From: a virus
Lineage: Duplodnaviria; Heunggongvirae; Uroviricota; Caudoviricetes
Virus record (IMG/VR): IMGVR_UViG_3300002756_000060
Location: 1-32,694 of that record
Reading direction: 5' to 3' (one strand)
DNA length: 32,694 nt
Made by a program: the position numbers and the translations under genes. The first letter of the stretch is position 1, and each line of letters starts with the position of its first letter. This document shows positions 829 through 27,519 of the stretch, piece after piece. Below the pieces are notes generated by a model that saw nothing but the letters and a program-made list of their open reading frames with translations, had not been told where the DNA came from and made no database searches.

Positions 829-832
<4 letters not shown>
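401..832 (+). CDS. hypothetical protein
   Basis: 143-aa ORF; its stop overlaps the hsdR start (ATGA at 829-832), suggesting translational coupling; no recognisable domain. Confidence 0.45.
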
Positions 833-3960
<3,128 letters not shown>

Positions 3961-4220
3961 TCGTGGCCACAAAAATATTGGTGGCAAAGGCCGAAAATCG
4001 GGCATTCGCTGTGGTTTTCACCGAGGTCTACTTTGCGGATAAAGTGAGCTTTCGCTGGGCACGCGCGAGTGTGCGCTTATCCTAAAATGACTTCGGAGAG
4101 ACTGGGTCGTTTGGAACCGTTCGCTCACTCGGCCTTGTCTGGCGGCCATGGCCCTTCGCCGACGATCATCCGCGCGGAAGACCATCATTGCCGTTTTTTG
4201 AGAATACTACATAATGCACA

Positions 4221-5219
4221 GTGGAGGTGACTTTTTTGGATTCTTACCTGCAGATCGCGCAGACAGTTCTGAGATCGGCCCGCCGCCCTATGGGGGCAAA
4301 GGCCATTCTCGACGTGGCCTATCAAGCGGGAGTGGTGCCCAAGCACTTATACGGAAAGACTCAGCAAAAAACCCTCCAGGCACGGTTGAGCGAGGAAATT
4401 CTTCATCATCGCGAGACATCCCCGTTCTACCGGACCAAGCCAGGGCAGTTTTTCCTGACCGAGTTTCTCGATGCCGATGATGTCCCGGTGGAGTGGAAGA
4501 CGCCCTTTCCCGCCCGTCGTCGGACGCGCGATCTGACGCGTGACAACACGCTGGCCGTGAGGGGGTCATTCCTTGACCGGTGGCGCCGGAGGACGGCGGA
4601 CGCGGACAGTTTCTTCCAAGCGGCGGAGGCCGAGGGTGCGATGGCCTATATGCATCCCAAAGAGATGAGTGCGCAAGGCTACTGCGCCACGTGGACCTTT
4701 GCAATGGTCGTTAAGGACGACTGCACCCTTGCCTATAGGGTTGGGCGCTACCGCGACGATCGCGACAACTACGCCATGCAGCGATCGATCGGCTTCCCCG
4801 GTCCACTTACAGTCGAAGACATGACGCTGTTTTCGCGCGACCGGCTCGGAGCCGAGGACAGCGCCGCGGACGTTCTGATCCAAGATTTGGACCTTTCCTA
4901 TGCGTCCTTCCATGGCCGCGAAAAGCACCTCCCGAAGATCGACCATGTCATGGTCGTGGACGAGGCAGAGTCGCTGAACGTTGTGATCGTGCTGTCGTGG
5001 CAGTGTCCCGAATGGTTCGAGCCGACGACGCGGCGCATGTCGCTCAACGACCCGCACTGGCTCTGCACTTCGATCCGGCATAACGATTTAAATGACTTCG
5101 AACCGTGGAGTTCTAGGATTCTGGCCGCGCGGGCCGCGGATAGGGAGCGCACGACAGTTGGCCACGAAACGGATCACGGAACAGCAAGCGGCCTTTCTCG
5201 TGTCAGAGTTGACGAGTAG
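4221..5219 (+). CDS. HARE-HTH-like DNA-binding domain protein (N-terminal winged-helix; C-terminal ~230 aa of unknown function)
   Basis: N-terminus DSYLQIAQTVLRSARRPMGAKAILDVAYQAGVV...TLQARLSEEILHHRETSPFYRTKPGQFFLTEFL fits the HARE-HTH pattern; GGAGG at 4223-4227 upstream of alternative TTG at 4236, so the exact start (GTG 4221 / TTG 4236) is uncertain. Confidence 0.6.
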   Translation: MEVTFLDSYLQIAQTVLRSARRPMGAKAILDVAYQAGVVPKHLYGKTQQKTLQARLSEEILHHRETSPFYRTKPGQFFLTEFLDADDVPVEWKTPFPARRRTRDLTRDNTLAVRGSFLDRWRRRTADADSFFQAAEAEGAMAYMHPKEMSAQGYCATWTFAMVVKDDCTLAYRVGRYRDDRDNYAMQRSIGFPGPLTVEDMTLFSRDRLGAEDSAADVLIQDLDLSYASFHGREKHLPKIDHVMVVDEAESLNVVIVLSWQCPEWFEPTTRRMSLNDPHWLCTSIRHNDLNDFEPWSSRILAARAADRERTTVGHETDHGTASGLSRVRVDE

Positions 5220-6840
5220 GGAAGATTCTCGCCGTCAGAAGGTCGCTCTCCAAAATCTTAGCCGCCTTTATCGAACCGGCCATCGGTTCGCCCCGGAGAC
5301 TGCGCCGCGCGTTGAGCAGCAGATCGTAGGGCTGACCAACATGAGCCGCGACGAAAAGGTCGTGCGGTGGGGACTGAACACCCTTGCGCAACTTGGCACC
5401 AAGGACAGCGCCGAGAGCGTCGAGTTGGCAATCAAGCGCCACGAAACCAAGCCCGAGATCGTGGCGGCAGGCATCTCGGCCCTAGCCCGCCTGCGCGCGG
5501 GCCAACTGTCCGGCATTGCGGCTTTACGTAGCGTCCCGCCGGAGGTTCAGATGCTCGCGGCTATGCAAACCGTAGATCCCAAGCGGTTAGCCGTCGACGG
5601 GCTCCAAATCGACCTCGATGTGGCCGATCCAGAGATATTGAAGCTGGCTCTGATCGTCGTCGGGCTCGATCGGGATGTGCAGCATCTACTCCATCCCAAG
5701 CACGAAAACGGCGTCATTGTGCGGGAACTCGGGCAACACGACGATCCCATCGTGCGCCAATACGCAGTTTGGGCCGTGATCGAAAATCGTCGACTGTCGA
5801 TCGCCCATCTCGGCATCGATATCAATCGCATCGAAGATCAGCCAGCGAACGTGCAGTCGAAGCTACTGCAACTTGTCTCGTCCTCTCTGCCCGACCTCAA
5901 TCAACGGCATGAAGCAATCTTGCGGGGAGCCGATCTTCCTACAGTCGACGCGCGTGAGGGTCTCGCCAAAGGTCTTCTGCACGCACACTATGACGGCCTT
6001 GCAGAGATAACGCTGGACTGGTTCGATATTGAAGGAAGCGGCCGCGTGAAGTTGCATCTAGCAGAACATTTCGCGCGTTTCGCTGACGACCAGCCAAGTT
6101 ATCGCGTCAAGGCCTTGGAACTCGTCGAGAGCGGCGGCAACCTGCGCGAGCGGGTCCTGCTGGGTGCGGAAGGGACAGCCTTCTTCAGCGACATCAGGAA
6201 AGCGGAAGGGCAAGCATCACTGGGACTCTTTGGTCTCGGGGGAGACGAACAAATGGCACGACTGGAGAAGGCGGTTCGCATCATGAATAGGGAAACTGTG
6301 CTGGTGCTCAATGCGACACCCGACGACTTAGGGCGCATTCGGGCAGACAAGGAGGGCGCGTTGCTTGAGCGCCAATTGGAGACCGTTAAGAACCGGGAGC
6401 GCGATCTTCTCGTCGTTCAAAAGTTCGCGGTCCGCCTGCAGGACATCCAAAAGGAGCTCCTTAACCATCGGCCGAAGATCCTGCACTTCAGCGGGCATGG
6501 TGGCGTCGGCGTGCTGTGTTTTGAGAAGGACGACGGGACAGAGGCCTTGATCGCCGGAGACGTTCTTGCTGAGATTCTGGACGTCTATGGAGAGCTTGAG
6601 TGCCTAGTTCTCCACGCTTGCTACACAGAAAGTGTTGCGCGGGCCTGTGCGAAACACGTTGGCGTCGTAATTGGCTCGACAGATGCTATCGACGACGAAA
6701 CCGCTCCGAAGTTCACCTACGCATTCTATCAGGCCTTGGCGAACGGCCGTCCCTACGAGAACGCATTCAGGGCTGGACAGGTCGAAGTCAGAACCGCTAG
6801 CGAGGTGGCCGCAGCCTGCTACAAGCTGTTCACCCGCTAA
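5092..6840 (+). CDS. HEAT-like repeat protein with C-terminal CHAT (caspase-like) protease domain
   Basis: C-terminus ILHFSGHGG...ECLVLHACYTESVARACAKHVGVVIGSTDAIDDETAPKFTYAFYQALANGRPYENAFRAGQ matches the CHAT His/Cys dyad and FY..L..G tail; N-terminal helical repeats (VVRWGLNTLAQLG, IVRQYAVWAVIEN). Start uncertain: ATG 5092 overlaps the upstream gene by 128 nt; GTG 5200, TTG 5209 and ATG 5341 are alternatives. Confidence 0.7.
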   Translation: MTSNRGVLGFWPRGPRIGSARQLATKRITEQQAAFLVSELTSREDSRRQKVALQNLSRLYRTGHRFAPETAPRVEQQIVGLTNMSRDEKVVRWGLNTLAQLGTKDSAESVELAIKRHETKPEIVAAGISALARLRAGQLSGIAALRSVPPEVQMLAAMQTVDPKRLAVDGLQIDLDVADPEILKLALIVVGLDRDVQHLLHPKHENGVIVRELGQHDDPIVRQYAVWAVIENRRLSIAHLGIDINRIEDQPANVQSKLLQLVSSSLPDLNQRHEAILRGADLPTVDAREGLAKGLLHAHYDGLAEITLDWFDIEGSGRVKLHLAEHFARFADDQPSYRVKALELVESGGNLRERVLLGAEGTAFFSDIRKAEGQASLGLFGLGGDEQMARLEKAVRIMNRETVLVLNATPDDLGRIRADKEGALLERQLETVKNRERDLLVVQKFAVRLQDIQKELLNHRPKILHFSGHGGVGVLCFEKDDGTEALIAGDVLAEILDVYGELECLVLHACYTESVARACAKHVGVVIGSTDAIDDETAPKFTYAFYQALANGRPYENAFRAGQVEVRTASEVAAACYKLFTR

Positions 6841-7136
6841 AAGACTCAGGCTTGTCGATTTCTTCCACTCTGATTTGAGCTGACATGACAGCCGCGTTAT
6901 ATACTTCGCCCGTTCCTAACGACTCATTCTGCTTTTCAGAACGTGGCGGGAAGTAGGTCCAGATCGGATCGAAACGCCAACTTGGAAACCCGAGTTTCCT
7001 TGAACCAAACCTTCGCAGCGCATTCCTTGAAGGTCCCCTTGGGCCGAGAGTGCACCCTCCCATTGGTTCCTCCCTGGCCCCGAACGTATACGGGGGGGCG
7101 CAGCGCGGCAGTTTTCCAGCGTCTGGCCTTTTCACC

Positions 7137-7325
7137 GGGGAATCCAGGCGGAATCCACCTGCCGAGTCATCCTGGAAAAAGCGACTCATTATCAAGGACT
7201 TGCCGAATCACGACCTGGCCAGGGTGGATTCTTTTACCGAATCCAGGGAATCCAGTTCGCGGAAGCCACAGCGCCGGAAGCCAGCCAGCGGAAGCCACCT
7301 GATGGGAAGCCATTGAATCCAGGTG
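7137..7325. repeat. Array of at least 10 short GGAA(T/G)CCA motifs in both orientations
   Basis: ggggaatccagg, cggaatccacc, gggtggattc (inverted), ccgaatccaggg, gggaatccag, cggaagccaca, ccggaagccagcc, gcggaagccacc, gggaagccattg, tgaatccaggtg. Confidence 0.6.
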
Positions 7326-7335
7326 CATTTTTCGT

Positions 7336-7419
7336 TTGACAAAGCTGCCCCCCTTGACTCATACCTTGATAATCGAAGAATGGCGCCCGGAGGAAACTCT
7401 CGCGGGCGTTTTTGTTTTT
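7336..7419 (+). promoter_or_regulatory. Promoter-like TTGACA/TTGACT/GATAAT elements followed by a GC stem (CGCCCG 7384-7389 / CGGGCG 7403-7408) and T-run tttttgttttt; candidate leader attenuator or terminator
   Basis: TTGACA at 7336-7341, TTGACT at 7354-7359, GATAAT at 7368-7373; hairpin plus U-tract; the same arrangement is conserved at 22422-22510. Confidence 0.4.
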
Positions 7420-7505
7420 CCAACATCGCGGACCCTGATGCTGTCGCCGACCGGTGCGGTCGCGCTCTCGCGTCTGTCCGCGTCTCACCACAGCAGAGAG
7501 ACCCC

Positions 7506-8768
7506 ATGGACCTTGTCTTCGCGCCAAGCGAGATCGAGGCGTGGCCGATCGAGCGGCTGCGCCCCTATGCCCGCAATGCCAAGATGCATGGTGAGGACCA
7601 GGTGGCCAAGATCGCCGCCAGCATGGCGAAGTTCGGCTGGACGGTGCCCTGCATGGTGTCCGACGATGGCGAGTTGATTGCCGGGCATGGCCGGGTACTG
7701 GCGGCCGCAATGCTGGGGCTGAAGGATGTGCCGGTGATCCGGCTGGCGCATCTGGACGAGGCCGAGCGGCGGGCCTACCGGATCGCCGACAACAAGCTCA
7801 CGGAACTCGGCGATTGGGACGAGACCGTGCTGCGCGACGAGATCGCGGGGCTGCTGGCCGAGGATTTCGACCTGTCGCTGCTGGGGATCGGCGACGATGA
7901 TCTGGATGCGCTGCTGCGCGACCCCGAAGCGCAGGACGGCGACGGCCCGATCGAGGGCGAGGACGACGTTCCGGAACCGCCGGTCACGCCGGTCTCGGTG
8001 GCGGGCGATCTCTGGCAGCTTGGCGCGCATCGACTGATCTGCGGCGACAGCACTGCGGCGGACGTGGTCGGGCGCCTGCTGGGCGATGTGCGCCCCCTGC
8101 TGATGGTGACCGATCCGCCCTATGGCGTGGAATACGATCCGTCCTGGCGAAACCAGGCGGGCGCCGCCAAGACCAAACGCACCGGCAAGGTGCTCAACGA
8201 TGACCGCGCCGACTGGCGCGAGGCCTGGGCGCTGTTTCCGGGCGACGTCGCCTATGTCTGGCACGGTGCGCTGCATGCCGCCGAGGTGGCGGAGTCGCTG
8301 ATCGTCTCGGGTTTTGCCATCCGCTCGCAGATCATCTGGGCCAAGGACCGGCTGGTGCTCAGCCGAGGCGATTACCACTGGCAGCATGAACCGTGCTGGT
8401 ATGCGGTGCGTACCAAGGGCAAGGGCCACTGGGCCGGCGATCGCAAGCAGACGACGCTGTGGCAAATCGCAAACAAGGATCAGGATGTGGCCACCGTCCA
8501 CGGCACGCAAAAGCCCGTCGAGTGCATGCGCCGCCCGATCCTCAACAACTCGAACGCCGGTCAGGCGGTCTATGAGCCCTTCATGGGATCGGGCACGACG
8601 CTGATCGCGGCGGAAACCACCGAACGGATCTGCTACGGGGTCGAGCTCAACCCGGCCTATGTCGATGTCGCCGTCAAGCGCTGGCAGTCCTTCACCGGCG
8701 CGGAAGCGGTGCTGGCGGACACCGGCGAGAGCTTTGCCAGCCTCAAGGCCAAACGGATGGCTGCATGA
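7506..8768 (+). CDS. ParB-like nuclease domain fused to DNA methyltransferase (beta-class, motif IV DPPY; N6-adenine type predicted)
   Basis: N-terminal ParB-type motif (RPYARNAKMHG...IAGHGRVLAA...YRIADNKLTELG); motif IV LMVTDPPYG; motif I YEPFMGSGTTLIAAE. The ORF is open from 7323 but the start is called at ATG 7506 by alignment with the paralog at 22593. Confidence 0.85.
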   Translation: MDLVFAPSEIEAWPIERLRPYARNAKMHGEDQVAKIAASMAKFGWTVPCMVSDDGELIAGHGRVLAAAMLGLKDVPVIRLAHLDEAERRAYRIADNKLTELGDWDETVLRDEIAGLLAEDFDLSLLGIGDDDLDALLRDPEAQDGDGPIEGEDDVPEPPVTPVSVAGDLWQLGAHRLICGDSTAADVVGRLLGDVRPLLMVTDPPYGVEYDPSWRNQAGAAKTKRTGKVLNDDRADWREAWALFPGDVAYVWHGALHAAEVAESLIVSGFAIRSQIIWAKDRLVLSRGDYHWQHEPCWYAVRTKGKGHWAGDRKQTTLWQIANKDQDVATVHGTQKPVECMRRPILNNSNAGQAVYEPFMGSGTTLIAAETTERICYGVELNPAYVDVAVKRWQSFTGAEAVLADTGESFASLKAKRMAA

Positions 8769-10132
8769 GCATGCATTTGCGTCCCAGCCAGATCGAGTTC
8801 TGGCCGCTGGACCGCCTCAAGCCCTATGCCCGCAACGCCAAGACCCATGACGCCGATCAGGTGGCGCGGATCGCCGCCAGCATGGCCGAGTTCGGCTGGA
8901 CCGTGCCCTGCCTGGTTGGCGACGATGGCGACCTGATCGCGGGCCATGGTCGCGTTCTTGCCGCCGCGCAGCTGGGCCTGGCGGAGGCACCCGTCATCGT
9001 GCTGGGCCATCTGACCGAGGCGCAGCGCCGGGCCTATCGCATCGCCGACAACAAGCTGACCGAGTTGGGCGGCTGGGACGAGGGCCTGCTGCTGGAGGAA
9101 CTGCGGGGGCTTATGGCCGCCGAGTTCGACCTCGGGCTGATCGGCATCCCCGAGGACGAGCTGGATGCCCTGCTGCGCGACGCCGATGACGACAGTGTGC
9201 CCATCGACGACGACACAGCCGATACCATCCCGGAGCCCCCGGCCGAGCCGATCACCCGGCCCGGCGATATCTGGGCGCTGGGCGCGCACCGGCTGATCTG
9301 CGGCGATGCCACCGACGCGGATGTCGTGGCCAGGCTTATGGAGGGCGCGCAGTCGTCGCTGATGTTCACCTCGCCGCCCTACGCCCAGCAGCGCGACTAT
9401 GGCGCGGCCAGGGAGACGGTGGGCGACTGGGACGCGCTGATGCAGGGCGTCTTCGCGGCGGCACCGGTCACCGACGCGGCCCAACTGCTGGTCAATCTCG
9501 GCCTCGTGCATCGCGACGGTGAGTGGCTCCCCTATTGGGAGCGCTGGGTCGAGTGGATGCGCAGCTCTGGCTGGCGGCGCTTCGGCTGGTATGTCTGGGA
9601 TCAGGGGCCGGGCCTGCCCGGCGACTGGAATGGCCGCCTCGCGCCCTCGCACGAGTTCATCTTCCACTTCAACCGCCAACCCCGGAAGCCCAACAAGACG
9701 GTGCCGTCCAAGCACGCGGGCGAAACCTTGGGCGGCGGTGGGCTGCGCGGGGTCAACGGCACCGTCCACGCCAAGCGAGGGGCCGGCAACGCGATCCAGA
9801 GCCATCGCATCCCGGACTCGGTGTTTCGTATCATGCGCCACAAGGGCGGGCTGGGTGCTGCCGGATCGCATCCGGCCGTGTTCCCGGTGGCGCTGGTCGA
9901 GGCCGTGCTGACCGCGTTCAGCGATCCAGGCGACCTGATCTACGAGCCGTTCTGTGGCTCCGGCACGCAGATCGTTGCCGCCGAACGCGCTGGGCGGCGC
10001 TGCTTCGCGATGGAGCTGGATCCGGTCTATTGCGACGTCGCCATGCGGCGATGGGAACTGGCGACGGGGCGGACGGCGCAGTTGGAAAATCGCAACGAGA
10101 CCACCATTGGCAAGGAGACAAAACAGCAATGA
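8765..10132 (+). CDS. ParB-like nuclease domain fused to DNA methyltransferase (beta-class, motif IV SPPY; N4-cytosine type predicted)
   Basis: ParB-type N-terminus (KPYARNAKTHDADQVARIAASMAEFGW...); motif IV LMFTSPPYAQQRDYG; motif I YEPFCGSGTQIVAAE; ATGA overlap with the upstream gene at 8765-8768. Confidence 0.85.
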   Translation: MSMHLRPSQIEFWPLDRLKPYARNAKTHDADQVARIAASMAEFGWTVPCLVGDDGDLIAGHGRVLAAAQLGLAEAPVIVLGHLTEAQRRAYRIADNKLTELGGWDEGLLLEELRGLMAAEFDLGLIGIPEDELDALLRDADDDSVPIDDDTADTIPEPPAEPITRPGDIWALGAHRLICGDATDADVVARLMEGAQSSLMFTSPPYAQQRDYGAARETVGDWDALMQGVFAAAPVTDAAQLLVNLGLVHRDGEWLPYWERWVEWMRSSGWRRFGWYVWDQGPGLPGDWNGRLAPSHEFIFHFNRQPRKPNKTVPSKHAGETLGGGGLRGVNGTVHAKRGAGNAIQSHRIPDSVFRIMRHKGGLGAAGSHPAVFPVALVEAVLTAFSDPGDLIYEPFCGSGTQIVAAERAGRRCFAMELDPVYCDVAMRRWELATGRTAQLENRNETTIGKETKQQ

Positions 10133-10638
10133 TCATCGACACCCCGATCTGGCGAAACGCCGACCTCATTCGGATCATTCCGATCACACGCGCGGACCTG
10201 AACCAGGCCATATCCCGAAACGACTTTCAGCCTGAAAACACACCCAAGCCCGGAAAGGCGCGCTGGTACAGCTGGAGAGACGTGGTGTCGGTTGCTGCCG
10301 CACAGGACTTGCGCAAACTTGGCTTTGGTCCGTCCATCGCATTTAGGCTGGTGCAAAACCACCTGTCACCGTTTCTGCGGGGTAGCATAGACGCCCCGGA
10401 CGATTGCGCAGGAGTGCTTTGGCTTATCCGTCCAAGTGACGACCATCTCAACATTGAGACCCCGTGTGAGTTCCTGCGCCACACCGAATACGAGGCACTC
10501 CTTGTCACGCCAGACGAGAGCGCCTGCATCATCGTGAATATCGGTCGCATTGCAGCACGCGTTCGCGATGACCTGCAGGCGACCGAGACCGCCAAGGTCA
10601 TCCGTGAGGAATTTCAGATCACGGGACCGGTGATGTGA
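10129..10638 (+). CDS. hypothetical protein (169 aa)
   Basis: ATG 10129 overlaps the upstream stop (ATGA); AAGGAGA Shine-Dalgarno at 10112-10118; conserved paralog at 25216-25725. Confidence 0.6.
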   Translation: MIIDTPIWRNADLIRIIPITRADLNQAISRNDFQPENTPKPGKARWYSWRDVVSVAAAQDLRKLGFGPSIAFRLVQNHLSPFLRGSIDAPDDCAGVLWLIRPSDDHLNIETPCEFLRHTEYEALLVTPDESACIIVNIGRIAARVRDDLQATETAKVIREEFQITGPVM

Positions 10639-10844
10639 CCCAATCGCGCGGCATGTCGCTGATCGAGGCCATCACCAATGTCGCGGTGGGCTATGCGCTG
10701 GCCGTCGCCGCGCAGATCGCGGTTTTCCCGTGGTTCGGCCTGCATGCGAGCATTGGCGAGAACCTCACCATCGGCGCCCTGTTCACCGGCATCTCGCTGC
10801 TGCGCAGCTACGCGCTGCGCAGGCTGTTCGAACGCTGGTGGTAA
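10635..10844 (+). CDS. small hydrophobic (probable membrane) protein, 69 aa
   Basis: GTG start overlapping the upstream stop (GTGA); two hydrophobic stretches (VAVGYALAVAAQIAVFPWFG, LTIGALFTGISLL); conserved paralog at 25722-25937. Confidence 0.5.
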   Translation: MTQSRGMSLIEAITNVAVGYALAVAAQIAVFPWFGLHASIGENLTIGALFTGISLLRSYALRRLFERWW

Positions 10845-10853
10845 CGCGCGGGA

Positions 10854-11309
10854 TCAAGCCGTGTCGAGCTTGTACACGGTGCCACGCCCGTCAACTTTCT
10901 CGGCAGTGACGGGCAGGCCCAGCTTCTTCTTGAGCCCGCCCGAGATCAGGCCACGTGCACTATGCGGCTGCCACGAGGTCGCCTCGACAATCTCGGCGAT
11001 GGATGCGCCCTCGGGCCGCTGAATGAGCGCGATGATCTGCGCCTGCTTCGTGCCCGAGCGGATGGCGACGGGTTTTGCGGTGTCCGCAGCTTCGGGCGTC
11101 GGTGCGACATCGGGCTTGGGCTTTCCCTTCCGCGCGCTGGCGACAGCGCTGACCACCACCGGCTCGATCCCGATGGCCTCCAGCCCGGCCTCGGTGGCGA
11201 TCAGCGTGGTGCCATGACCGTCACCGGTCTCGCGCCAGAGCGGCTCGCCGCGGCGGCTGTCGGCATCGACCTCCTCGATCCAGCCATTGGTGATCATGCG
11301 AGTGAACAC
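10854..11309 (-). CDS. DUF3489-like protein, probably a 5'-truncated copy
   Basis: Aligns with the C-terminal ~150 aa of the 193-aa paralog at 26938-27519 (WRETGDGHGTTLIATEAGL...SIAEIVEATSW...GRGTVYKL); start abuts a divergent gene at 11312 with no promoter space. Confidence 0.5.
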   Translation of the reverse strand: MFTRMITNGWIEEVDADSRRGEPLWRETGDGHGTTLIATEAGLEAIGIEPVVVSAVASARKGKPKPDVAPTPEAADTAKPVAIRSGTKQAQIIALIQRPEGASIAEIVEATSWQPHSARGLISGGLKKKLGLPVTAEKVDGRGTVYKLDTA

Positions 11310-11311
11310 CG

Positions 11312-12058
11312 ATGAGCCTGCATCCCGGTACGGATCGCTACAACCCGGCTGGGAACAGCGACTTCACCCGCAAGGCGGAGGCGCTGGCGCTGGGCATCCC
11401 CAACTGGTCGACACCGAAGGCGACAGACGGCGCGAAGGGTGGGCCGGGCCAGAGCTATGGCTCGGGCGGGACGCCACCCCTGCCCGCGCAGGCGGCACAA
11501 TGGCAGACGCCGGTGGCCGACGACCAGATGGATCGGCTGCGTGGCAAGATCAACAGCCGGGGCGAGCCGAAGCTATCGGCACAGGCGCTGCAATGGCCGA
11601 CCCCGGCGGCGCAGAACTGGAAGGGGAGCAGCCCGGCCAGCGTGACGCGGGCGGATGGCAAGAGCCGGATGGATATCCTGCATTACCGGGCGGAGCAGGG
11701 CTTCACCCACCCGGCCCCGGCGATCATGCGGCATGGGCGGCAGTGCTCGCGACACGCCCCGATCTCACGCCCGCTGTGGGCTTCGATGATTGCCTCGCAT
11801 GGGCGCGGCGCATGTCGGCGGCTCCTGAAGGGCCGCTCACGGCGGCGGCTGAACCCGCTCTTCGTCGGATGGTTGATGGGCTGGCCCATCGGTCACGCGC
11901 TCTGCGCCTGCTCGGCAACGGAGTTCATCCTCTGGCAGCAGCGCATGCGTGGCGCGCTCTCGCAGCTGCCCATGGCCTCGGGCCCGTGGATCTGGCGGCC
12001 ATCGGACGAGGCCCAGCGCCCCGCGCAGATGACGCTGTTTGAGGTGTGGTCTGAATGA
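11312..12058 (+). CDS. hypothetical protein with three W-x-TP motifs
   Basis: 248-aa ORF; NWSTPKATDGAKGG, QWQTPVADDQ, QWPTPAAQNWKGSS; stop overlaps the next ATG (ATGA at 12055-12058). Confidence 0.5.
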   Translation: MSLHPGTDRYNPAGNSDFTRKAEALALGIPNWSTPKATDGAKGGPGQSYGSGGTPPLPAQAAQWQTPVADDQMDRLRGKINSRGEPKLSAQALQWPTPAAQNWKGSSPASVTRADGKSRMDILHYRAEQGFTHPAPAIMRHGRQCSRHAPISRPLWASMIASHGRGACRRLLKGRSRRRLNPLFVGWLMGWPIGHALCACSATEFILWQQRMRGALSQLPMASGPWIWRPSDEAQRPAQMTLFEVWSE

Positions 12059-12717
12059 CGATACAAGGAAAGATCGGGCGGCCAGGCGGCCAAAAAACCA
12101 AACGCGCGCTGGGCGTGCAGGCGGCGCTGGAATGGGCCTTTGGCGTGGAAAAGGCACAGCTGGAACTGCCCCTACCGAAGGGCGTGGCCGAGGAAGGCTT
12201 CGGCTTTGGGCTCGAATACGTGCTGCTGCAACGCGCCATACTTGGCTGCAAGATCGACGGCGGCCAACACAAGTTGGGTGGCTATGTGCACGTGGACGCC
12301 GAGGTGATCGCCGCCACCGTCGCGGGCATGCCCGACACCTTGGGTGGTAAGCGCATGGCGATCCGGGTCGCGGAACTGGCACGCGCCGGGCTGACCCCGG
12401 ACTGGATGCCCAGGGCCGTGCCGCGCTGCGTGCCCGTCGATATCAAGCGCAACCGGCATGGTGATCGCGCGGTCAGCGTCGTGGTCGGCACCGCCCGCGC
12501 GCTGATCAGCGGCAAGTGGCGCATCGTCGAGGTCCGCGCCTGCCCCGTCACCTTCACCCCAACCCCACACCAGATCGACGCCGCCCGCCAAGCCTATGAC
12601 GACTGGTGGCAGGCACTGGACTGGGTACGGGATGGGCTTATCGCGGGCGACATGCTGCGGGAGATTGATGTGACAGGGGCGATGCCGAGCGTGCGGCCGT
12701 GGGCTGCAAAGCCTTGA
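12055..12717 (+). CDS. hypothetical protein (220 aa)
   Basis: Translationally coupled to the upstream gene; no recognisable motif. Confidence 0.5.
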   Translation: MTIQGKIGRPGGQKTKRALGVQAALEWAFGVEKAQLELPLPKGVAEEGFGFGLEYVLLQRAILGCKIDGGQHKLGGYVHVDAEVIAATVAGMPDTLGGKRMAIRVAELARAGLTPDWMPRAVPRCVPVDIKRNRHGDRAVSVVVGTARALISGKWRIVEVRACPVTFTPTPHQIDAARQAYDDWWQALDWVRDGLIAGDMLREIDVTGAMPSVRPWAAKP

Positions 12718-12778
12718 TCTTGCGCTCGGCACAAAGAATTCACTCGAAGCGCTGGCATTCAGCAAGTAAGCCTAAGGT

Positions 12779-15652
12779 ATGTTCACCGCTTACCATGGCA
12801 AATATACCGCATATGATCTTACGAAGCTGGCGCCGCCCGGCTCGGACGATCAGTTGTCAATGTCGTTGTTCGATGCATCGGTTGATCTCAATCCTCATCA
12901 GATTGAGGCCGCGATGTTCGCGCTTCAATCGCCGCTGGCTGAAGGCGCGATACTTGCGGATGAGGTCGGCCTCGGCAAAACCATCGAGGCAGGCATTGTC
13001 CTTTGCCAGAAATGGGCTGAGCGAAAACGGAAACTAATCATCATCTGCCCAGCGGCCATTCGACAGCAGTGGGCTGCAGAACTGACGAACAAGTTCAATC
13101 TTCCCGCAGTCGTCATTGACGCTCGGACCTATCGACAGATGAAGATGGAAGGCATTCCATTCCCTTTGTCACAGAAGCGGATCGTCGTGCTATCCTATCA
13201 TTATGCTGCAAAGCTTCAGGATGAGCTTCGGCAAGTCGATTGGGATCTGGTTGTTATCGACGAAGCGCACAAGCTTCGTAACTCGTACCGACCCAGCAAT
13301 CGCATCGGGCAAGCTCTTCAACGAGCAGTCGAAGGCCGCAAAAAGCTCCTGCTGACGGCTACTCCCCTCCAAAACAGCTTGATGGAGATATTCGGGCTTA
13401 CGAACTTCATTGATCCAAACATTTTCGGCGATGCCAACAGCTTCCGGTCGAAGTATGTGAATGCCGGTGGCGATCTGCCCGAGCTTCGCGCAAGGCTCGC
13501 GGATTTCTGCAAGCGCACGCTTCGGAAGCAGGTTCTCGAGTATGTCAAATATACTCAGCGCCGTGCCATCACGCAGCCATTCTCGCCGGCGGAGAACGAG
13601 CAGGCGCTGTATGACGGCATTACGCGCTTCCTACAACGAGAGGACACCTATGCAATACCCTCTCAACAGCGCCATCTAACCGTTCTTATCCTGCGGAAGC
13701 TTCTCGCTTCGTCATCACAGGCCATCGCAGGGACGCTTGAGACCCTACGCGCCCGCTTGGTAGCCCTGCAGAAAGGGGAACCGGTAAAGGATGATCTGGC
13801 GGAGGTGATTTCATTCGAGAACGAGCTCGAAGAAGAAATTCTCGACGAATGGGATGATGACGATGCGCAAGACCCCACAGGGGCCGAGCAAATCGACTTC
13901 GCCAAGCTTCGCCTGGAAATCGACGATATTTCAGGTCTGATCCAGCTTGCACATTCGATCCAGATCGATACTAAGTCCAAAGCGCTGCTACAGGCTCTCG
14001 AGATAGGCTTTTCGGAGCAGGAGCGGATGGGCGCACAGAGAAAAGCCCTGATCTTCACAGAGTCGCGCCGCACCCAAGACTATCTCCGCGATTTCCTCGC
14101 GCGCTACGGTTACGCCAATCAAATTGTGACCTTCAGTGGCACTAATTCCGACCGCAAGGCACAGGAAATTTACGAGCGCTGGCTTACCGATCCGAAGAGC
14201 GCCGAGCAGATTACAGGATCGCGCGCCATCGATGTTCGTGCTGCACTGATAGAAGAATTCCGCGACAATGCCTCGATCATGATCGCAACCGAGGCCGCCG
14301 CCGAGGGTGTCAACCTGCAATTCTGCTCGCAGGTCATCAACTACGACCTTCCGTGGAACCCGCAGAGGATCGAACAGCGCATCGGACGCTGCCATCGCTA
14401 TGGGCAGACGCATGATGTGATCGTCGTGAACTTCCTGAACGAACGCAACGATGCAGATAAACGGGTTCACGCGCTTCTAACCGAGAAGTTCAATCTGTTC
14501 GATGGTGTATTTGGGGCTTCAGACGAGGTCTTGGGAACGATTGAGTCCGGCGTCGACTTCGAAAAGCGCATTCTGGCGATTTACCAGGACTGCCGCACTC
14601 CGGAGGCCATCGCCGCAGCTTTTGATGAACTTCAGACCCAGCTCGAGGAACAAATTCGGAGCCGAATGGAGGATACAAGGCGGGCCCTGCTGGAGAACTT
14701 CGACGAGGATGTCCACGCCCGCCTGAAGCTGCGCCTCGCTGACGCCCGCGAACAGTTGGACCGTGTCGGGCGCCGGTTTTGGGATCTGACCACTGCTATC
14801 CTCGCCGACAAGGCCAAATTCGATGAACCAAATCTGGCCTTCGACCTTCTGGCCCCGCCGACCCGCGACCTGCGACCGGGCCGCTATCACCTGATCTCGC
14901 GGAACTCGGCCGCAGACCCGGCCAAGAACGAACACGGCTATTTCCTCTACCGGCTGTCGCACCCTCTTGGCGAGCATGTCATTGAATCGGCCAAGGCCGC
15001 TGACACGCCAGTGGCCGAATTGCGGTTCGATGTGACCAATCACCCCACACGCGTGGCCATCGTCGAGGCGCTGAAAGGGCGGCGCGGCTGGCTGACGCTG
15101 CGCAAACTTGCGGTGACGACCTTCGAGACCGAGGAATACCTGCTATTCTCGGGCATCGACGACAATGGTCGCTCCATCGACCACGAAGCCTGCGCCAAGC
15201 TGTTCTCGGTCGGTGCTGGCGTTCACCCCATCGACATGCCCGCCCCTGCCATCGCCGACCTCCTTCAGGCTGAGGCCGAGCAGCATGCCAAAGCCACCTT
15301 GAACCGGTCGCTGGATGCCAACAACAAGCACTTTGCCTCGGCCCGTGAAAGGCTGGAGCGCTGGGCTGAGGACAAGGTCTACGCGGCAGAGAAGGCGCTG
15401 AAGGACACCAAGGAACAGATCAAGGGGGTGCGTCGCGAGGCGCGGGCAGCTACCACACTCGAAGAAGAAGCCGCCATCCAAGCCAAACTGCAGGAACTGG
15501 AACGTCGCCAGCGCAAGCAGCGGCAGGAAATCTTCAACCAGGAAGACGAAGTGGCCGACAAGCGGGACGAGTTGATCGCCAACCTTCAAAAGCGGCTCAG
15601 CCGTGGCCACTCGGTTGAATCGCTGTTTACGGTCCGCTGGGCCGTCGTGTAG
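12779..15652 (+). CDS. SNF2-family (SF2) helicase/ATPase
   Basis: Motif I LADEVGLGKTIEAG; motif II LVVIDEAHKLRN; motif III LLLTATPLQNSLMEIFGL; C-terminal helicase motifs ALIFTESRRT, IMIATEAAAEGVNLQ, DLPWNPQRIEQRIGRCHRYGQ; AT-richer codon usage than neighbours. Confidence 0.9.
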   Translation: MFTAYHGKYTAYDLTKLAPPGSDDQLSMSLFDASVDLNPHQIEAAMFALQSPLAEGAILADEVGLGKTIEAGIVLCQKWAERKRKLIIICPAAIRQQWAAELTNKFNLPAVVIDARTYRQMKMEGIPFPLSQKRIVVLSYHYAAKLQDELRQVDWDLVVIDEAHKLRNSYRPSNRIGQALQRAVEGRKKLLLTATPLQNSLMEIFGLTNFIDPNIFGDANSFRSKYVNAGGDLPELRARLADFCKRTLRKQVLEYVKYTQRRAITQPFSPAENEQALYDGITRFLQREDTYAIPSQQRHLTVLILRKLLASSSQAIAGTLETLRARLVALQKGEPVKDDLAEVISFENELEEEILDEWDDDDAQDPTGAEQIDFAKLRLEIDDISGLIQLAHSIQIDTKSKALLQALEIGFSEQERMGAQRKALIFTESRRTQDYLRDFLARYGYANQIVTFSGTNSDRKAQEIYERWLTDPKSAEQITGSRAIDVRAALIEEFRDNASIMIATEAAAEGVNLQFCSQVINYDLPWNPQRIEQRIGRCHRYGQTHDVIVVNFLNERNDADKRVHALLTEKFNLFDGVFGASDEVLGTIESGVDFEKRILAIYQDCRTPEAIAAAFDELQTQLEEQIRSRMEDTRRALLENFDEDVHARLKLRLADAREQLDRVGRRFWDLTTAILADKAKFDEPNLAFDLLAPPTRDLRPGRYHLISRNSAADPAKNEHGYFLYRLSHPLGEHVIESAKAADTPVAELRFDVTNHPTRVAIVEALKGRRGWLTLRKLAVTTFETEEYLLFSGIDDNGRSIDHEACAKLFSVGAGVHPIDMPAPAIADLLQAEAEQHAKATLNRSLDANNKHFASARERLERWAEDKVYAAEKALKDTKEQIKGVRREARAATTLEEEAAIQAKLQELERRQRKQRQEIFNQEDEVADKRDELIANLQKRLSRGHSVESLFTVRWAVV

Positions 15653-15685
15653 ACCAGCCGAGTAACATCAAGGAAAACAAGAACA

Positions 15686-18600
15686 ATGAGCAATTTTGAC
15701 GCCCTCGTTGCCAAGCTGCGCGAAATCTTCCAGATCGACCGGCCTGACCTCGATTTTGGCGTCTACCGTATCCTCAACGCCCGCGCGGGGGAAATCGAGG
15801 ATTACCTGTCCAAGCGTCTGAAGGCGCGGGTGGCCGAAGCACTGGCTGCCGGTGCTGCGGCCAATACCGAAACGCTGAAGGCCGCGATTGAGAAAGCGCG
15901 CGAAGCTGCTGAGGCCGCAGGGTACAATTCAGACGAAGCTCCGAGAGTTCTGAGCCTCCAGAAGGAACTTGCAGCCGCCAGCGGGGCCACGTCGGAGCAT
16001 GAAAATCAGGTCTTCTCGCACCTGTTGACCTTCTTCTCGCGCTACTACGACAAGGGCGATTTCATCAGCCAGCGCCGGTACAAGGGTGATACCTATGCCA
16101 TCCCCTATTCCGGGGAAGAGGTCGTGCTGCACTGGGCGAACCGCGATCAGTATTACATCAAAAGCGGAGAATCCTTCTCGAACTTCAGCTTCAAGCTGGA
16201 TGACGGTCGACTTGTGCATTTCCGCCTTGTCGCTGCCGATACGGCCAAAGACAACCGCAAGGATAACGACAAGGAGCGCCGCTTCGTTCTGGCCACCGAG
16301 CGCACGGTCACGCGCCTTGACGAGGAGGGCGAGGGTTTTGAAGAAACCATCCGTCCGATCGAGGAAGAGGATGGCGCGCTGGTCATCCGGTTCGACTTTG
16401 CAGCACAGCCCAAAGGGACCAAGCAAGAAAAACTGGTTGAGGCGGCGGTGGAAACCATTCTGGACAGCGAGACTTTCAAATCGAGATGGCTGGAACTGAC
16501 CAACCGCGCGCCGACGGAAAAGAAACCGCAGCGCACCTTGCTGGAAAAGCACCTGACGACCTACACGCAAAAGAACACCGCCGATTACTTCATTCACAAG
16601 GATCTGGATGGTTTTCTGCGGCGCGAACTGGATTTCTACATCAAGAACGAGGTGATGAACCTGGACGATGTGCAGGAGGCCGGGGCCTTTGCCGCCATCG
16701 AAAGAAACCTACGGATGATCCAATGCCTGCGGGCCATCGCTCTGGACCTGATTACCTTTCTGGCCAGCATCGAGAATCTCCAGAAAAAGCTATGGCTGAA
16801 AAAGAAATTCGTGGTGGCGGCGCAGTATTGCGTGACGCTGGACCGGGTGCCGGAGGCGCTTTACCCGGCTATCGCGGCGAACCCCGCGCAATGGGCGCAG
16901 TGGCATGATCTGGGGATGCGGGCATCCGCGGCGCCGGGGACGGTGGAGGATCTGAAAGCCGCGCCCTTCCTGATGGTGGACACCGCGCTCTTTGATGCGG
17001 GTTTCCGGGCTGACCTGTTGAAGGCGATCCCCGATCTGGATGCTAGCCTCGACGGGCTGCTGGTTCATGGGGACAATTTTCAGGCGCTGAACCTTTTGCA
17101 GGATCGATACCGGGAAAAGGTCAAATCAATCTATATCGACCCGCCTTACAACACTGACGCAGGACCGATCAGTTACAAGAACGGCTACCGGAGTTCGTCG
17201 TGGGTTGCCATGATGCACGACCGCGTGAAACTCGGGCGTGAGCTATTGCCTCTCGACGGGTTGCTCACCGCCACGATCGATGACTATCAGTACCGTGAAT
17301 TGCACTTCGCCATTGAAGAGGTTTTTGGCGCTCAAAACCTCGCAGGTACCGTTGTAATCCGAATGAACCCGTCTGGCCGCCCGCTCCCACAAGGCTTCGC
17401 ACAGTCCCACGAATACGCAATCGTCGCGAAGCGGTCAGACTTAGCTCAGATCGAGAACTTACCGAGAAGCGAGAAGCAGAACGCCAGATATAAGCACCGC
17501 GATGACGACGGTCAGATGTACATGTGGGAACTGTTCAGAAAGCGCGGATCGAATTCCGAAAGAACTGACCGGCCTTCGCTGTATTATCCGATCTATCTCC
17601 GGGGTGAGGACTTTCGGGTTCCCCGAATGACTTATGATCCTGATCGCAAGGATTGGGATATTCATGAAGAACCGGATACCGACGAAAGCGTCATCTACCC
17701 TATTGACGACAACGGAACCTTGCGCACGTGGCGTGGCTCACCGGATGATTTGATCGATAATCCAAGCAACTATCGTGTGAAGATCGAGGACAGCAAAGTC
17801 ACGGTCTACTACAAGTTTCGCCCCAACTCTGAGGGTGTGCTTCCGCTCACCAACTGGATCGATGCCAAATACTCCGCAACGGAGCATGGAACGGGATATC
17901 TCAAGAACTTCTTTTCGGAATACAACGTTTTCTCCTATCCGAAGTCGATCTACGCGGTTGAAGACTGCATCAGGGTTGGTGGCGCAACGGCCAATGCAAC
18001 CGTCCTCGACTATTTTGCAGGATCGGGCACGACTGGACACGCAGTCATAAACTTGAACCGGTCCGACCAAGGGTCTCGAAAGTACATCTTGGCCGAGCAA
18101 GGCGCTTACTTCGAAACTGTCATTAAGCCACGCTTAAAGAAGGCAGTGTTTTCTGCTGATTGGTCAGAGGGTAAACCCACCGCCCCCGAAACCGGCATCA
18201 GCCATGCCTTCAAGGTACTCAAGATCGAGGGCTATGAGGACACGCTGAACAATCTTGATCTGAAGCGTTCGGAGGCGCAGGCCAGTCTTCTGGAACGGTT
18301 CAGCGCCGACAAGCGCGACGACTATTTGATGCGCTACATGCTGGATGTCGAGGGACGCGGCTCGCTCCTGTCCATCTCGGATTTCCGCAAGCCCTTTGAC
18401 TACTCGCTCAAGGTCGCCGTCGACAGCGCCGGGGCCTGGGAGGAGCGCAAGGTCGATCTGGTCGAGACCTTCAACTACCTGATCGGCCTGACCGTCCGCC
18501 ATATCGACATCCAGCTTCGCCAAGGCTTCGCCACGGTCGAGGGCTGGTTGCCAACGGGTGAGCGGACCCTGATCCTGTGGCGCGACTGCGATAAAATCGG

Positions 18601-18805
18601 CTATGAGGAATTGACGCGCCTGTGCGACAAACTGGCGATTAACCCGGCCGACAGCGAATACGACGTGGTCTACATCAACGGCGACCACAATATCCCCTCG
18701 GTGGTGGAAACGACCGAGGAAGAGGGCAGCGTTATCAAGAAGCTGATGCTGCGCCAGATCGAACCCGCCTTCCTCGATGCGATGTTCAACGTGGATGACG
18801 TCTGA
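15686..18805 (+). CDS. Type III Mod-like beta-class DNA methyltransferase with ~480-aa N-terminal extension
   Basis: LLVHGDNFQALNLLQDRYREKVKSIYIDPPYNT (motif IV) precedes VLDYFAGSGTTGHAV (motif I); AAGGAAA Shine-Dalgarno at 15670-15676; 1039 aa. Confidence 0.85.
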   Translation: MSNFDALVAKLREIFQIDRPDLDFGVYRILNARAGEIEDYLSKRLKARVAEALAAGAAANTETLKAAIEKAREAAEAAGYNSDEAPRVLSLQKELAAASGATSEHENQVFSHLLTFFSRYYDKGDFISQRRYKGDTYAIPYSGEEVVLHWANRDQYYIKSGESFSNFSFKLDDGRLVHFRLVAADTAKDNRKDNDKERRFVLATERTVTRLDEEGEGFEETIRPIEEEDGALVIRFDFAAQPKGTKQEKLVEAAVETILDSETFKSRWLELTNRAPTEKKPQRTLLEKHLTTYTQKNTADYFIHKDLDGFLRRELDFYIKNEVMNLDDVQEAGAFAAIERNLRMIQCLRAIALDLITFLASIENLQKKLWLKKKFVVAAQYCVTLDRVPEALYPAIAANPAQWAQWHDLGMRASAAPGTVEDLKAAPFLMVDTALFDAGFRADLLKAIPDLDASLDGLLVHGDNFQALNLLQDRYREKVKSIYIDPPYNTDAGPISYKNGYRSSSWVAMMHDRVKLGRELLPLDGLLTATIDDYQYRELHFAIEEVFGAQNLAGTVVIRMNPSGRPLPQGFAQSHEYAIVAKRSDLAQIENLPRSEKQNARYKHRDDDGQMYMWELFRKRGSNSERTDRPSLYYPIYLRGEDFRVPRMTYDPDRKDWDIHEEPDTDESVIYPIDDNGTLRTWRGSPDDLIDNPSNYRVKIEDSKVTVYYKFRPNSEGVLPLTNWIDAKYSATEHGTGYLKNFFSEYNVFSYPKSIYAVEDCIRVGGATANATVLDYFAGSGTTGHAVINLNRSDQGSRKYILAEQGAYFETVIKPRLKKAVFSADWSEGKPTAPETGISHAFKVLKIEGYEDTLNNLDLKRSEAQASLLERFSADKRDDYLMRYMLDVEGRGSLLSISDFRKPFDYSLKVAVDSAGAWEERKVDLVETFNYLIGLTVRHIDIQLRQGFATVEGWLPTGERTLILWRDCDKIGYEELTRLCDKLAINPADSEYDVVYINGDHNIPSVVETTEEEGSVIKKLMLRQIEPAFLDAMFNVDDV

Positions 18806-22150: not shown

Positions 22151-22225
22151 ATGGTTCCTCCCGGGCGCGATCCGTATACGGGGGGGCTGAGCGCGGCATT
22201 TCGCTAGCGACTGGCTTTTTCACCG

Positions 22226-22427
22226 GGGAATCCACTTGGAAGCCACCCCGGCGGCCCTGCCGGAAATTGTGACTCAATTTCAGAACCTTACCCGACAGCA
22301 TCGGTGGCCAGGGTGGATTCCTTTTGGAAGCCAGGGAATCCACTTGGTGGGTTCTTTTGGCCAGAAAAGCCACCCTCAGGCCAGATCGGCAGAACACCTT
22401 GATTCCAAGCCACAAAATGGATTGACA
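22226..22427. repeat. Array of GGAA(T/G)CCA motifs in both orientations (paralog of 7137-7325)
   Basis: gggaatccacttggaagccacc occurs twice; ggtggccagggtggattcc (inverted); gattccaagccac. Confidence 0.6.
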
Positions 22428-22510
22428 TTTCTAGCCCCCTTGACGTACCCCTTGATTGTCGAAGAGTTGCGCCCGGAGGAAACCCCTCGCGGGCGCTTTT
22501 GCTTTCCCCC
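22422..22510 (+). promoter_or_regulatory. Promoter-like TTGACA/TTGACG/TTGATT elements followed by a GC stem (GCGCCCG 22469-22475 / CGGGCGC 22490-22496) and T-rich tract
   Basis: Same arrangement as 7336-7419; the conserved leader CATCGCGGACCCTGA follows in both copies. Confidence 0.4.
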
Positions 22511-22592
22511 ATCGCGGACCCTGACACAGCAACCGGCGTTTGCCGGGGCTTGCATTGGTCTGTCCGCCCTGCCCCGGATCCGAACCCCACCC

Positions 22593-25937: not shown

Positions 25938-25989
25938 TGCCAGTTCCTGATAAAAAATGCAGCTGAGAGAAGCGCCGAATTTTTGGCGC

Positions 25990-26937: not shown

Positions 26938-27519
26938 TCAGGCGGCCTCGAGTTTGTACACGGTGCCTCTGCCCGCGACCTTCTCCGAGGTAACCGGCAG
27001 GTTCAGCTTCTTCTTGAGGCCGCCCGAAATCAGGCCTCTCGCCGAATGCGCCAACCATCCCGTCGCTTCGACGATCTCGGCGATGGATGCACCCTCGGGT
27101 CGCTGAATGAGTGCGATGATCTCCGCCTGTTTGGTGCCGGTGCGGATGGCAACCGGCTTCGGCGTGGAAGGGTTCGGGGAAGCTTCGGACGCATCCTTGG
27201 GCCCAGTGACCAGCTCCAGCTTTGCCTTGCGCGCGCTGGCGACGGCGCTGGCCACCACCGGCTCGATCCCGATGGCTTGCAGCCCGGCCTCAGTCGCGAT
27301 CAGCGTGGTGCCGTGGCCGTCGCCGGTTTCGCGCCACATGGGCTCGCCTCGGCGCAGGTTGGCCTCGACCTCTTCAAGCCAGCCGCGCGTGATCATCGCG
27401 GTCACCGCCTTCTGGGCGGCGGCGCCATGCAGGCCCTCGGGCAGTGGCATAGCGAGGTTGCCGGGGCGCGTTGCCGCGCGGCTGAGGACGATGGTTTGGG
27501 TGTCGGTGAGTTTGGGCAT
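26938..27519 (-). CDS. DUF3489-like protein (full-length copy, 193 aa)
   Basis: Paralog of 10854-11309 with ~42 extra N-terminal residues. Confidence 0.6.
   Translation of the reverse strand: MPKLTDTQTIVLSRAATRPGNLAMPLPEGLHGAAAQKAVTAMITRGWLEEVEANLRRGEPMWRETGDGHGTTLIATEAGLQAIGIEPVVASAVASARKAKLELVTGPKDASEASPNPSTPKPVAIRTGTKQAEIIALIQRPEGASIAEIVEATGWLAHSARGLISGGLKKKLNLPVTSEKVAGRGTVYKLEAA

Follow-up and report, generated by a model that had tools for sequence, protein, structure and literature searches.

The window analysed here is the whole of the viral stretch IMGVR_UViG_3300002756_000060 (Caudoviricetes; 32,694 nucleotides, nt), and the element in question is its open reading frame (ORF) at 11312-12058, which encodes a protein with three W-x-TP motifs. 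We propose, with a probability of roughly 0.6, that this ORF is the 5'-clipped back part of one frame, here called beta, of a prophage gene for a C5 cytosine methyltransferase, a gene laid out in two frames that overlap completely. Throughout, frame A (beta) is the frame of 11312-12058, the one chosen in an earlier sequence-only reading of the same DNA, and frame B (alpha) is the overlapping frame of 11287-12042. In C5 methylases the large domain is made up of motifs I-VIII plus X, and the small domain of the target-recognition domain (TRD) plus motif IX. In the intact gene both frames would be entered by ribosomes from one ribosome-binding site to give two polypeptides: alpha would supply the large catalytic domain, with motifs I-VIII and a motif X or X-like segment linked by a passenger of about 190 amino acids (aa), and beta would supply the small DNA-recognition domain, with TRD-like W-x-TP units and motif IX behind a leader of about 170 passenger aa. 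Together these chains would form an active enzyme, on the pattern of the heterodimeric M.EcoHK31I. In the window, an illegitimate deletion or rearrangement would have taken everything upstream of 11306, that is the catalytic half, the start region and the W-P of the first WPTP unit, and the remaining 248-codon fragment would begin at a fortuitous internal ATG. We infer that such a fragment would not methylate DNA on its own and would be a recent relic, unless alpha comes from another genomic copy. The broader proposition, that two co-extensive ORFs read from adjacent starts, each made of a constrained part and a stop-free passenger, form one enzyme throughout a large and ancient family, we regard as about an even bet.

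The W-x-TP motifs of the window ORF stand at residues 32, 64 and 95 (nt 11405-11416, 11501-11512 and 11594-11605), in the contexts NWSTPKATDGAKGG, QWQTPVADDQ and QWPTPAAQNWKGSS and at a spacing of 31-32 residues. Each heads a unit of about 31 aa that is preceded by (L)xAQAxQ, and just 1 of 200,000 shuffles of the 248-aa protein contained three such motifs, so the repeat pointed out in the sequence-only reading is real and non-random. The three units are presumed to be target-recognition elements. The ORF is a conserved coding frame, again as had been claimed: a protein search returned more than 1,400 close relatives in Rhodobacteraceae/Paracoccaceae, mostly of 248 or 217 aa with some of 344-420 aa, an exhaustive search returned 2,707 representatives of 50%-identity clusters, and the ratio of nonsynonymous to synonymous polymorphism (pN/pS) among relatives is 0.15-0.19 for codons 1-195 of frame A. 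The G+C content at third codon positions is 0.78-0.93 along the whole of 11312-12058, compared with 0.50-0.68 for the alternative frame 11287-12042. The most conserved segment of the protein, RRRLNPLFVGWLMGWP, contains the invariant or near-invariant columns R179, L180, N181, P182, F184, W187, L188, M189, G190, W191 and P192. The suggested translational coupling to the next ORF is also borne out, as the TGA at 12056-12058 overlaps the ATG at 12055-12057 of that ORF (ATGA at 12055-12058), and the overlap is kept as CCATGAGC in relatives. The coordinates of these and other features are collected in Table 1.

Table 1. Features of the window, with constrained blocks of the intact relatives given at signed positions relative to the Met codon at 11312.
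Feature	Position	Strand	Details
DUF3489 gene	10854..11309	-	about 40 N-terminal codons short vs the paralogue at 26938..27519; PF11994 4e-25; tblastn q34-194; repeats D3, D4
Deletion/rearrangement junction	11298..11306 (break 11305|11306)		DUF3489 left, methylase homology right
Frame B ORF	11287..12042	+	251 aa; putative relic of the alpha (catalytic-subunit) frame, mostly unconstrained passenger
Frame A ORF	11312..12058	+	ATG start, 248 aa; stop TGA 12056-12058
Three tandem units of about 31 aa	11369..11650	+	residues 20-113; W-x-TP-x-A core in each
Most conserved segment of frame A, RRRLNPLFVGWLMGWP	11840..11887	+	motif IX likeness by pattern only
Constrained C-terminal segment of frame B, RRMVDGLAHRSRALRLLGNGVHPLAAAHAWRALAAAHGL	11863..11979	+	pN/pS 0.17 in B vs 0.91 in A (relative +594..+659)
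Frame A tail, LPMASGPWIWRP...AQMTLFE, with stop/start overlap	11972..12058	+	pN/pS 0.41 in A vs 1.72 in B
Downstream gene	12055..12717	+	220 aa; phrog_9306 (PHROGs); no curated domain; coupled to frame A
Relatives: catalytic part	-510..-1		pN/pS A 1.66, B 0.16
Relatives: W-x-TP and RRLNPLFVGWLMGWP	+3..+590		pN/pS A 0.19, B 1.64
Relatives: LLGNGVHPLAAAHAWRAL zone (GNGV)	+594..+659		pN/pS A 0.91, B 0.17
Relatives: tail	+660..+726		pN/pS A 0.41, B 1.72

The sequence-only reading could place the repeat in no known family. This stands for curated libraries, as Pfam and NCBIfam gave no match for either window ORF (11312-12058 or 11287-12042); it does not stand for PHROGs, in which residues 1-244 of the 248 match phrog_27243 (1.1e-141) and residues 28-151 match positions 131-250 of the 329 of phrog_1008, a 'DNA methyltransferase' profile (2.2e-14). 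It is further countered by about 150 loci in which the same gene encodes a PF00145 domain one base out of frame. A PDB sequence search with a 72-sequence profile gave chance matches to the MS2 coat protein only.

The evidence for a two-frame gene comes from intact relatives, for which 80 genome loci and 80 viral loci were fetched. The PF00145 catalytic half lies directly upstream in frame B (-520..+10) in 73 of the 80 genome loci and 76 of the 80 viral loci, and in those roughly 150 loci frames A and B are both open across the entire gene of about 1.25 kb, A lying one base downstream of B. Frame A extends from -516 to +745 and frame B from -520 or earlier to +730; in nearly all loci B ends 16 nt short of the stop of frame A. 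Of the remaining frames, the third forward one and each reverse one hold 5-10 stops. Frame B of these relatives matches PF00145 at 1e-30 over positions 4-164 of 324 (GGGGLDLG, PCQ, ENV, QRLRIF) and contains motifs I, IV (PCQ), VI (ENV) and VIII, then about 190 aa without amino-acid constraint, and then a GNGV segment, which in the window is the motif X-like LLGNGVHP...WRAL at 11908-11961. Frame A contains about 170 unconstrained codons, the W-x-TP units, an RRLNPxFVxWLMGWP segment and a short tail. In some genomes both frames are listed by NCBI, for example in Paracoccus yeei (P0445 and P0081). The Ser/Pro-rich N-terminus of the 420-aa relatives is an out-of-frame reading of the same catalytic domain; IRANLSARPESAA, for example, is the +1 reading of YPCQPFSAAGKRGG. 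Window frame A matches, at 100% identity, the final 248 codons of one such 420-aa ORF (L107:1985-3247, on the IMG/VR contig UViG_3300002490_000102), the ATG at 11312 being an internal Met of the intact ORF that is conserved in 72 of 72 relatives. The window ORF thus corresponds to the 3' 59% of frame A of a phage-type C5 cytosine methyltransferase gene. Short forms of beta measure 186, 217, 248 and 255-258 aa, the 217-aa form being short of exactly one W-x-TP unit; between one and four units occur in tandem across relatives, the same units are found in distant phage homologues, and the varying unit number suggests a route to altered specificity.

Selection switches between the two frames along the gene. 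Analysis of pN/pS by frame in 42 ungapped loci gave four blocks in which constraint falls on B, A, B and A in turn (Table 1), and codon-position diversity shows the same alternation. The changes seen within the GNGV zone (AAC/AAT, CAC/CAT, CCT/CCA/CCG and GCA/GCG) are synonymous in frame B and radical in frame A. The sequence-only reading had named the overlapping frame 11287-12042 as the possible real gene, in which case its own ORF would fall, and this turns out to be half right: both frames are real in the intact family, and in the window 11287-12042 is mostly a shadow over its length, with about 11863-11979 under purifying selection in relatives. Synonymous resampling put the chance, per sequence, of B being open in the A-constrained part at about 0.10 and of A being open in the B-constrained part at about 0.15; despite these values each frame is open in 71 of 72 sequences. 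Third positions at which T would create a frame B stop carry it in 1 of 1829 instances, compared with 1193 of 9501 (12.6%) elsewhere; counted by columns this is 1 of 15 vs 88 of 118 (Fisher p=4e-7), at sites that are polymorphic for A, C and G. The converse holds for frame A within the catalytic part (T in 0 of 281 instances vs 36.7%; columns 0 of 3 vs 19 of 24, p=0.019). Both frames are kept stop-free by selection.

The start region reads [G/A]TGAATG in 72 of 72 Rhodobacteraceae loci. In every one of them the frame B start codon overlaps the TGA (-519) that closes the upstream gene in frame A, and the frame A ATG comes next (-516), 4 nt after the frame B start codon (GTGAATG). This ATG requires AAT as the second codon of B; AAT is present there in all 72 loci, whereas it makes up only 7% of Asn codons elsewhere in the genes. 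Comparable starts are found in distant phages, with ATGAATG in an Acinetobacter phage, GTGAACCATG in a Synechococcus phage and ATGTG in an Acidovorax phage, each preceded by one Shine-Dalgarno-like element.

The layout itself is not confined to Rhodobacteraceae. Phage and prophage examples were found in Alpha-, Beta- and Gammaproteobacteria and Cyanobacteria, with co-extensive ORFs of about 0.9-1.25 kb. In Synechococcus phages Yong-M2-251 and Ssp-JY39, Acidovorax phage Alfacinha1, Acinetobacter phage ABMM1 (50% G+C) and Escherichia phage EcoPhCCP1, homology of the B type lies in one frame and homology of the A type in the +1 frame of the same DNA, both open end to end. Resampling for the five lineages gave probabilities of A being open of 0.0013, 0.019, 0.039, 0.014 and 0.047 (product 7e-10), and of B being open of <3e-4, 0.0013, 0.001, 0.0067 and 0.025 (product <=7e-14). 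Annotation chose frame A in two of these phages and frame B in two others, and the fifth has a hypothetical protein. A lambdoid prophage of E. coli 914033 (NZ_CP158353.1 2817721-2818890; locus L166) has the same two-frame layout, with four W-x-TP units in frame A; PGAP presents it as two 'incomplete' DNA cytosine methyltransferase pseudogene pieces, and the frames are actually open (B at 814-2028 and A at 926-1957 of the locus). Such labels, together with the failure of curated domain libraries to find frame A, are what would be expected if the layout were a decaying family of frameshifted pseudogenes and the W-x-TP ORF an annotation artefact. That explanation is ruled out by the conservation statistics and we give it next to no credence: about 150 loci, as well as five phage lineages drawn from different bacterial phyla, retain the same offset with both frames open, under strong frame-specific purifying selection and stop avoidance.

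The main rival to two polypeptides is a double programmed frameshift, in which a ribosome would start in B, shift +1 to A after motif VIII and shift -1 back to B once past the IX-like segment. This would yield a canonical C5 methyltransferase in a single chain, with the window ORF as its middle. The constrained segments, taken in the order B-A-B, do rebuild the canonical series of I-VIII, TRD, IX and X, and phrog_10223 is matched at its positions 36-58 in A and 53-101 in B, which is contiguous over the second junction. However, inspection by eye of the 72-locus alignment found no slippery heptamer, 0-frame stop or conserved stimulatory element at either frame junction, and a programmed ribosomal frameshift gene, considered as a class, was rejected for want of a conserved slippery site or stimulator. 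Recoding also leaves unexplained why B is stop-free through the W-x-TP region, why A is stop-free over the catalytic region with a conserved ATG, and why the tail of frame A is constrained and coupled to the next gene. We consider it unlikely.

The two-polypeptide, two-frame reading has several points against it, the first of which concerns translation. That either frame is translated at all we infer from sequence, and why beta should be translated by way of about 170 unconstrained codons instead of from an internal start is unexplained. The shared ribosome-binding site is not universal, because in an enterobacterial clade the start of frame A lies 70-120 nt downstream of that of B, ahead of motif I. 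The second concerns motifs IX and X. The segment RRRLNPLFVGWLMGWP fits the motif IX pattern R-x-L-T/S-x-x-E-x-x-R-L-Q/M-G-F-P without a significant Pfam or hhalign match, and LLGNGVHP in frame B can be likened to motif X (GN-A/S-V), where Pfam is silent and AlphaFold confidence is below 50; the labels IX and X are accordingly candidate assignments from pattern, position and weak PHROG matches. The C-terminal segment of frame B does match the C-termini of four 'DNA methyltransferase' PHROGs (E 0.001-0.03) and aligns with the C-terminus of an annotated Synechococcus phage methylase. PF00145 matches the N-terminal half only, even on conceptual B-A-B fusions made for Rhodobacteraceae and the Acinetobacter phage, and neither these fusions nor isolated IX-like and X-like peptides gave Pfam any gain over frame B alone. 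An hhalign comparison of the beta profile with five canonical C5 methylases from related loci returned probabilities below 1%. AlphaFold2 modelled the 248-aa beta protein from a 72-sequence alignment with a mean predicted local distance difference test score (pLDDT) of 56, a predicted template modelling score of 0.22 and residues 1-150 disordered, and the full frame B protein P0392 from a 75-sequence alignment with a pLDDT of 47 and below 50 in the GNGV region. In the P0392 model the catalytic core is of moderate confidence and residues 172-307 are at about 25-30, which is compatible with a disordered passenger without confirming the packing of motif X; the models gave no structural confirmation of the small domain.

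Rare in-frame fusions of the catalytic half with beta also tell against a two-chain enzyme. Those found are P0050, P0242 and 3 among 50 long representatives. In P0050 the W-x-TP part is fused to a genuine N-terminus of the PF00145 type (LDLG, PCQ, ENV, QRLRIF). In P0050, P0061, P0242 and P0357 the catalytic half and W-x-TP units share one frame through a 1-nt difference near the junction or an extra linker, and none of the four has the GNGV end. These could be natural fusions or sequencing errors. Finally, as far as the window itself is concerned, an assembly artefact may lie behind the junction at 11305|11306, a matter taken up with the junction below.

The closest parallel to the proposed two-frame enzyme is M.EcoHK31I of E. 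coli HK31 (YGGCCR), a heterodimeric C5 methyltransferase whose beta chain is read from within the alpha gene in another frame (Lee, Kam & Shaw 1995, as related in PMC2836561 and PMC3404938). Its alpha chain carries motifs I-VIII plus X, its beta chain motif IX, both being needed for activity (PMC2836561; PMC3404938); beta is reported to be the shorter chain, nested in alpha with internal starts of its own, and the TRD is assigned to alpha (PMC2836561, PMC3404938). In our relatives, compared with that system by description, elements of the large and small domains would likewise be split between two frames of one strand, and the alpha ORF contains a second, same-strand ORF in another frame; of the two frames the window keeps 3' remnants only. 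The distribution of constrained segments fits an alpha with I-VIII and X and a beta with IX, although profiles do not confirm motifs IX and X. Unlike in M.EcoHK31I, frame A is co-extensive with B, starting 4-7 nt after it (70-120 nt in the enterobacterial clade), and the only constrained sequence between motifs VIII and X is the W-x-TP units of frame A; moreover, M.EcoHK31I belongs to a restriction-modification system, whereas the genes here are orphan prophage genes.

M.AquI of Agmenellum quadruplicatum is a C5 methylase split in its variable region into two polypeptides that reassemble (PMC3404938). The present genes would be similarly divided within the variable region, but frame B runs past the split and ends, 16 nt ahead of the stop of frame A, in a segment resembling motif X; a split of the M.AquI kind into consecutive ORFs was rejected, as frame B has no stop at the junction. 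With canonical monomeric C5 methyltransferases (PF00145; M.HhaI, Dcm) frame B shares the N-terminal half of PF00145; unlike in those enzymes, no single frame holds TRD, IX and X, and the C-terminal half of the Pfam model is unmatched in either frame. The C5 methyltransferases of Bacillus phages SPR, phi3T and rho11s are multispecific, with tandem TRDs in the variable region. The likeness to them, a phage-borne enzyme with tandem modules in the variable region, is a resemblance only, the units here being of about 31 aa and numbering one to four. A literature search for earlier descriptions of overlapping frames in phage C5 methylases found only the EcoHK31I and AquI papers. The family is apparently a variant of the EcoHK31I arrangement that is undescribed as such in the literature searched, and it is much more extensive and widespread than that single precedent.

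How the window came to hold only the back part of such a gene can be read from its left edge. Methylase homology begins at 11306, inside the first WPTP unit, of which only 'TP' is left at 11306-11311; intact genes read ...SSSWPTPMSLHPG where the window reads ...*TPMSLHPG. By tblastn the catalytic half (motifs I, IV, VI and VIII) has no match in any frame of the window. By blastn, positions 2495-5744 of the L107 contig equal window positions 11306-14555 at 100%, with 0 mismatches in 3,250 nt, and to the left of the junction that contig is unrelated to the window and carries an intact catalytic half along with two genes, one VRR-NUC-like and the other encoding 320 aa. The truncation is either very recent or an assembly chimera, because this contig is identical to the right of the junction yet has an intact gene upstream. 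On the window side, repeat D4 of the truncated DUF3489 gene ends at 11297, left of the junction. The regions 7064-11300 and 22152-27400 are paralogous modules, each with two genes combining ParB-N with an N6/N4 methylase, a 168-aa gene, DUF7220 and DUF3489 on the minus strand, and the ParB-N6/N4 methylase copies are 82% and 86% identical in amino acids between the modules. A gene with an NYN domain (RNase-like) at 26026-26712 lies between DUF7220 and DUF3489 of the right-hand module and is lacking in the left-hand one. The window reads as two tandem related prophage-like elements joined by a deletion from DUF3489 of element 1 into the methylase of element 2.

If the junction were instead an assembly chimera, the real locus would be the intact two-frame gene of UViG_3300002490_000102. 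The identity of that contig over no fewer than 3,250 nt rightward from the break, with unrelated sequence to its left, is in keeping with this, and two window modules of 75-86% similarity could confuse an assembler. The break, though, lies outside any shared repeat and joins DUF3489 coding sequence to methylase coding sequence with a possible microhomology of at most about 4 nt, and the finding of six loci from independent assemblies that are 5'-truncated elsewhere indicates that such deletions occur. The exact 34-mer spanning the junction had no match in metagenome contigs, which is uninformative on a chimera. We take an assembly error to be improbable here, if somewhat less so than double recoding. 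The six other loci (L018, L034, L044, L045, L048 and L075) are truncated at various positions from -181 to -30, with unrelated sequence upstream; the catalytic half is lost every time and the beta part is intact in five.

It is also conceivable that the 248-aa protein is functional here, as a truncated beta paired with alpha from another copy or as a DNA-binding factor. The ORF is intact, its ATG is conserved in the 72 relatives, and the pN/pS of the window copy against relatives is 0.16 and not raised; several genomes hold more than one copy of such elements (Yoonia vestfoldensis has 4, for example, and Cypionkella sp. has 3), and an intact beta part is kept in most of the other truncated loci. 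The pN/pS value, however, says nothing about function, because the copy has not diverged from its intact parent, and with zero substitutions over 3.25 kb there has been no time to decay, so that intactness is uninformative as well. Against a function of its own stand the lack of an obvious ribosome-binding site before 11312, the loss of the first WPTP unit, the abutting divergent truncated gene, which leaves no promoter space, and a predicted structure that is largely disordered on its own. We therefore think such a role doubtful, about as much so as recoding of the intact gene.

The order usual in relatives is the methylase pair, the phrog_9306 gene, cargo, the ParB-methylases, DUF7220, DUF3489 on the minus strand, and terS/terL. 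The phrog_9306 gene follows the methylase pair in nearly all of 81 loci (about 78), and the position after it is a variable cargo slot. In the window this slot (12779-22122) holds a DrmD-like SNF2 helicase (PADLOC DrmD, 2e-203), a Type III Mod of 1039 aa and a Type III Res of 1105 aa. The sequence-only reading placed the W-x-TP protein just before this SNF2/Mod/Res operon, and on the link so implied it would be an accessory protein of a downstream defence system. They are indeed adjacent in the window and in two other loci (L004 and L056); these three, however, are the only ones of the 81 in which SNF2 follows the phrog_9306 gene, other methylases, hsdR or nothing recognisable being found elsewhere, and no PADLOC model matches 11312-12058. 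The co-occurrence check proposed along with the link shows it to be incidental, and an accessory role is very improbable. In seven loci (L012, L030, L033, L040, L042, L067 and L077) the same slot is occupied by C5 methylases of the canonical, single-frame kind (324-429 aa; PCQ, ENV, motif IX and GNA[VLF]P), about 0.7-1 kb downstream of the phrog_9306 gene; the elements often carry a second, conventional cytosine methylase. At the left of the window, 829-6840 holds a Type I hsdR (HSDR_N, SWI2_SNF2, T1RH-like_C) and, after it, genes for a HARE-HTH protein and for one with a CHAT domain, and is probably the cargo slot of the left-hand element.

The mystery repeat protein of the window would thus be explained as a clipped methylase fragment at a prophage-prophage deletion junction, with no tie to the defence operon. 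If the proposed arrangement is true, few overlapping gene pairs on one strand known from bacteria and their viruses would be as long or as widespread, and current annotation, which calls these genes 'hypothetical protein', lone 'DNA cytosine methyltransferase' or pseudogene, would be systematically incomplete. Long overlapping genes on the same strand are rarely accepted in prokaryotes, and the evidence here is unusually clean, consisting of four alternating selection blocks, stop avoidance in either frame across five deep lineages and a start codon maintained through a disfavoured synonymous codon. A single biochemical precedent, M.EcoHK31I, would be extended to thousands of phage and prophage genes, with the prediction that the DNA-recognition part sits in the frame that annotation pipelines often drop or mislabel. 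The family would also offer a testable system for dual initiation, and one in which methylation specificity may be varied through the number of W-x-TP units while the catalytic frame is left untouched.

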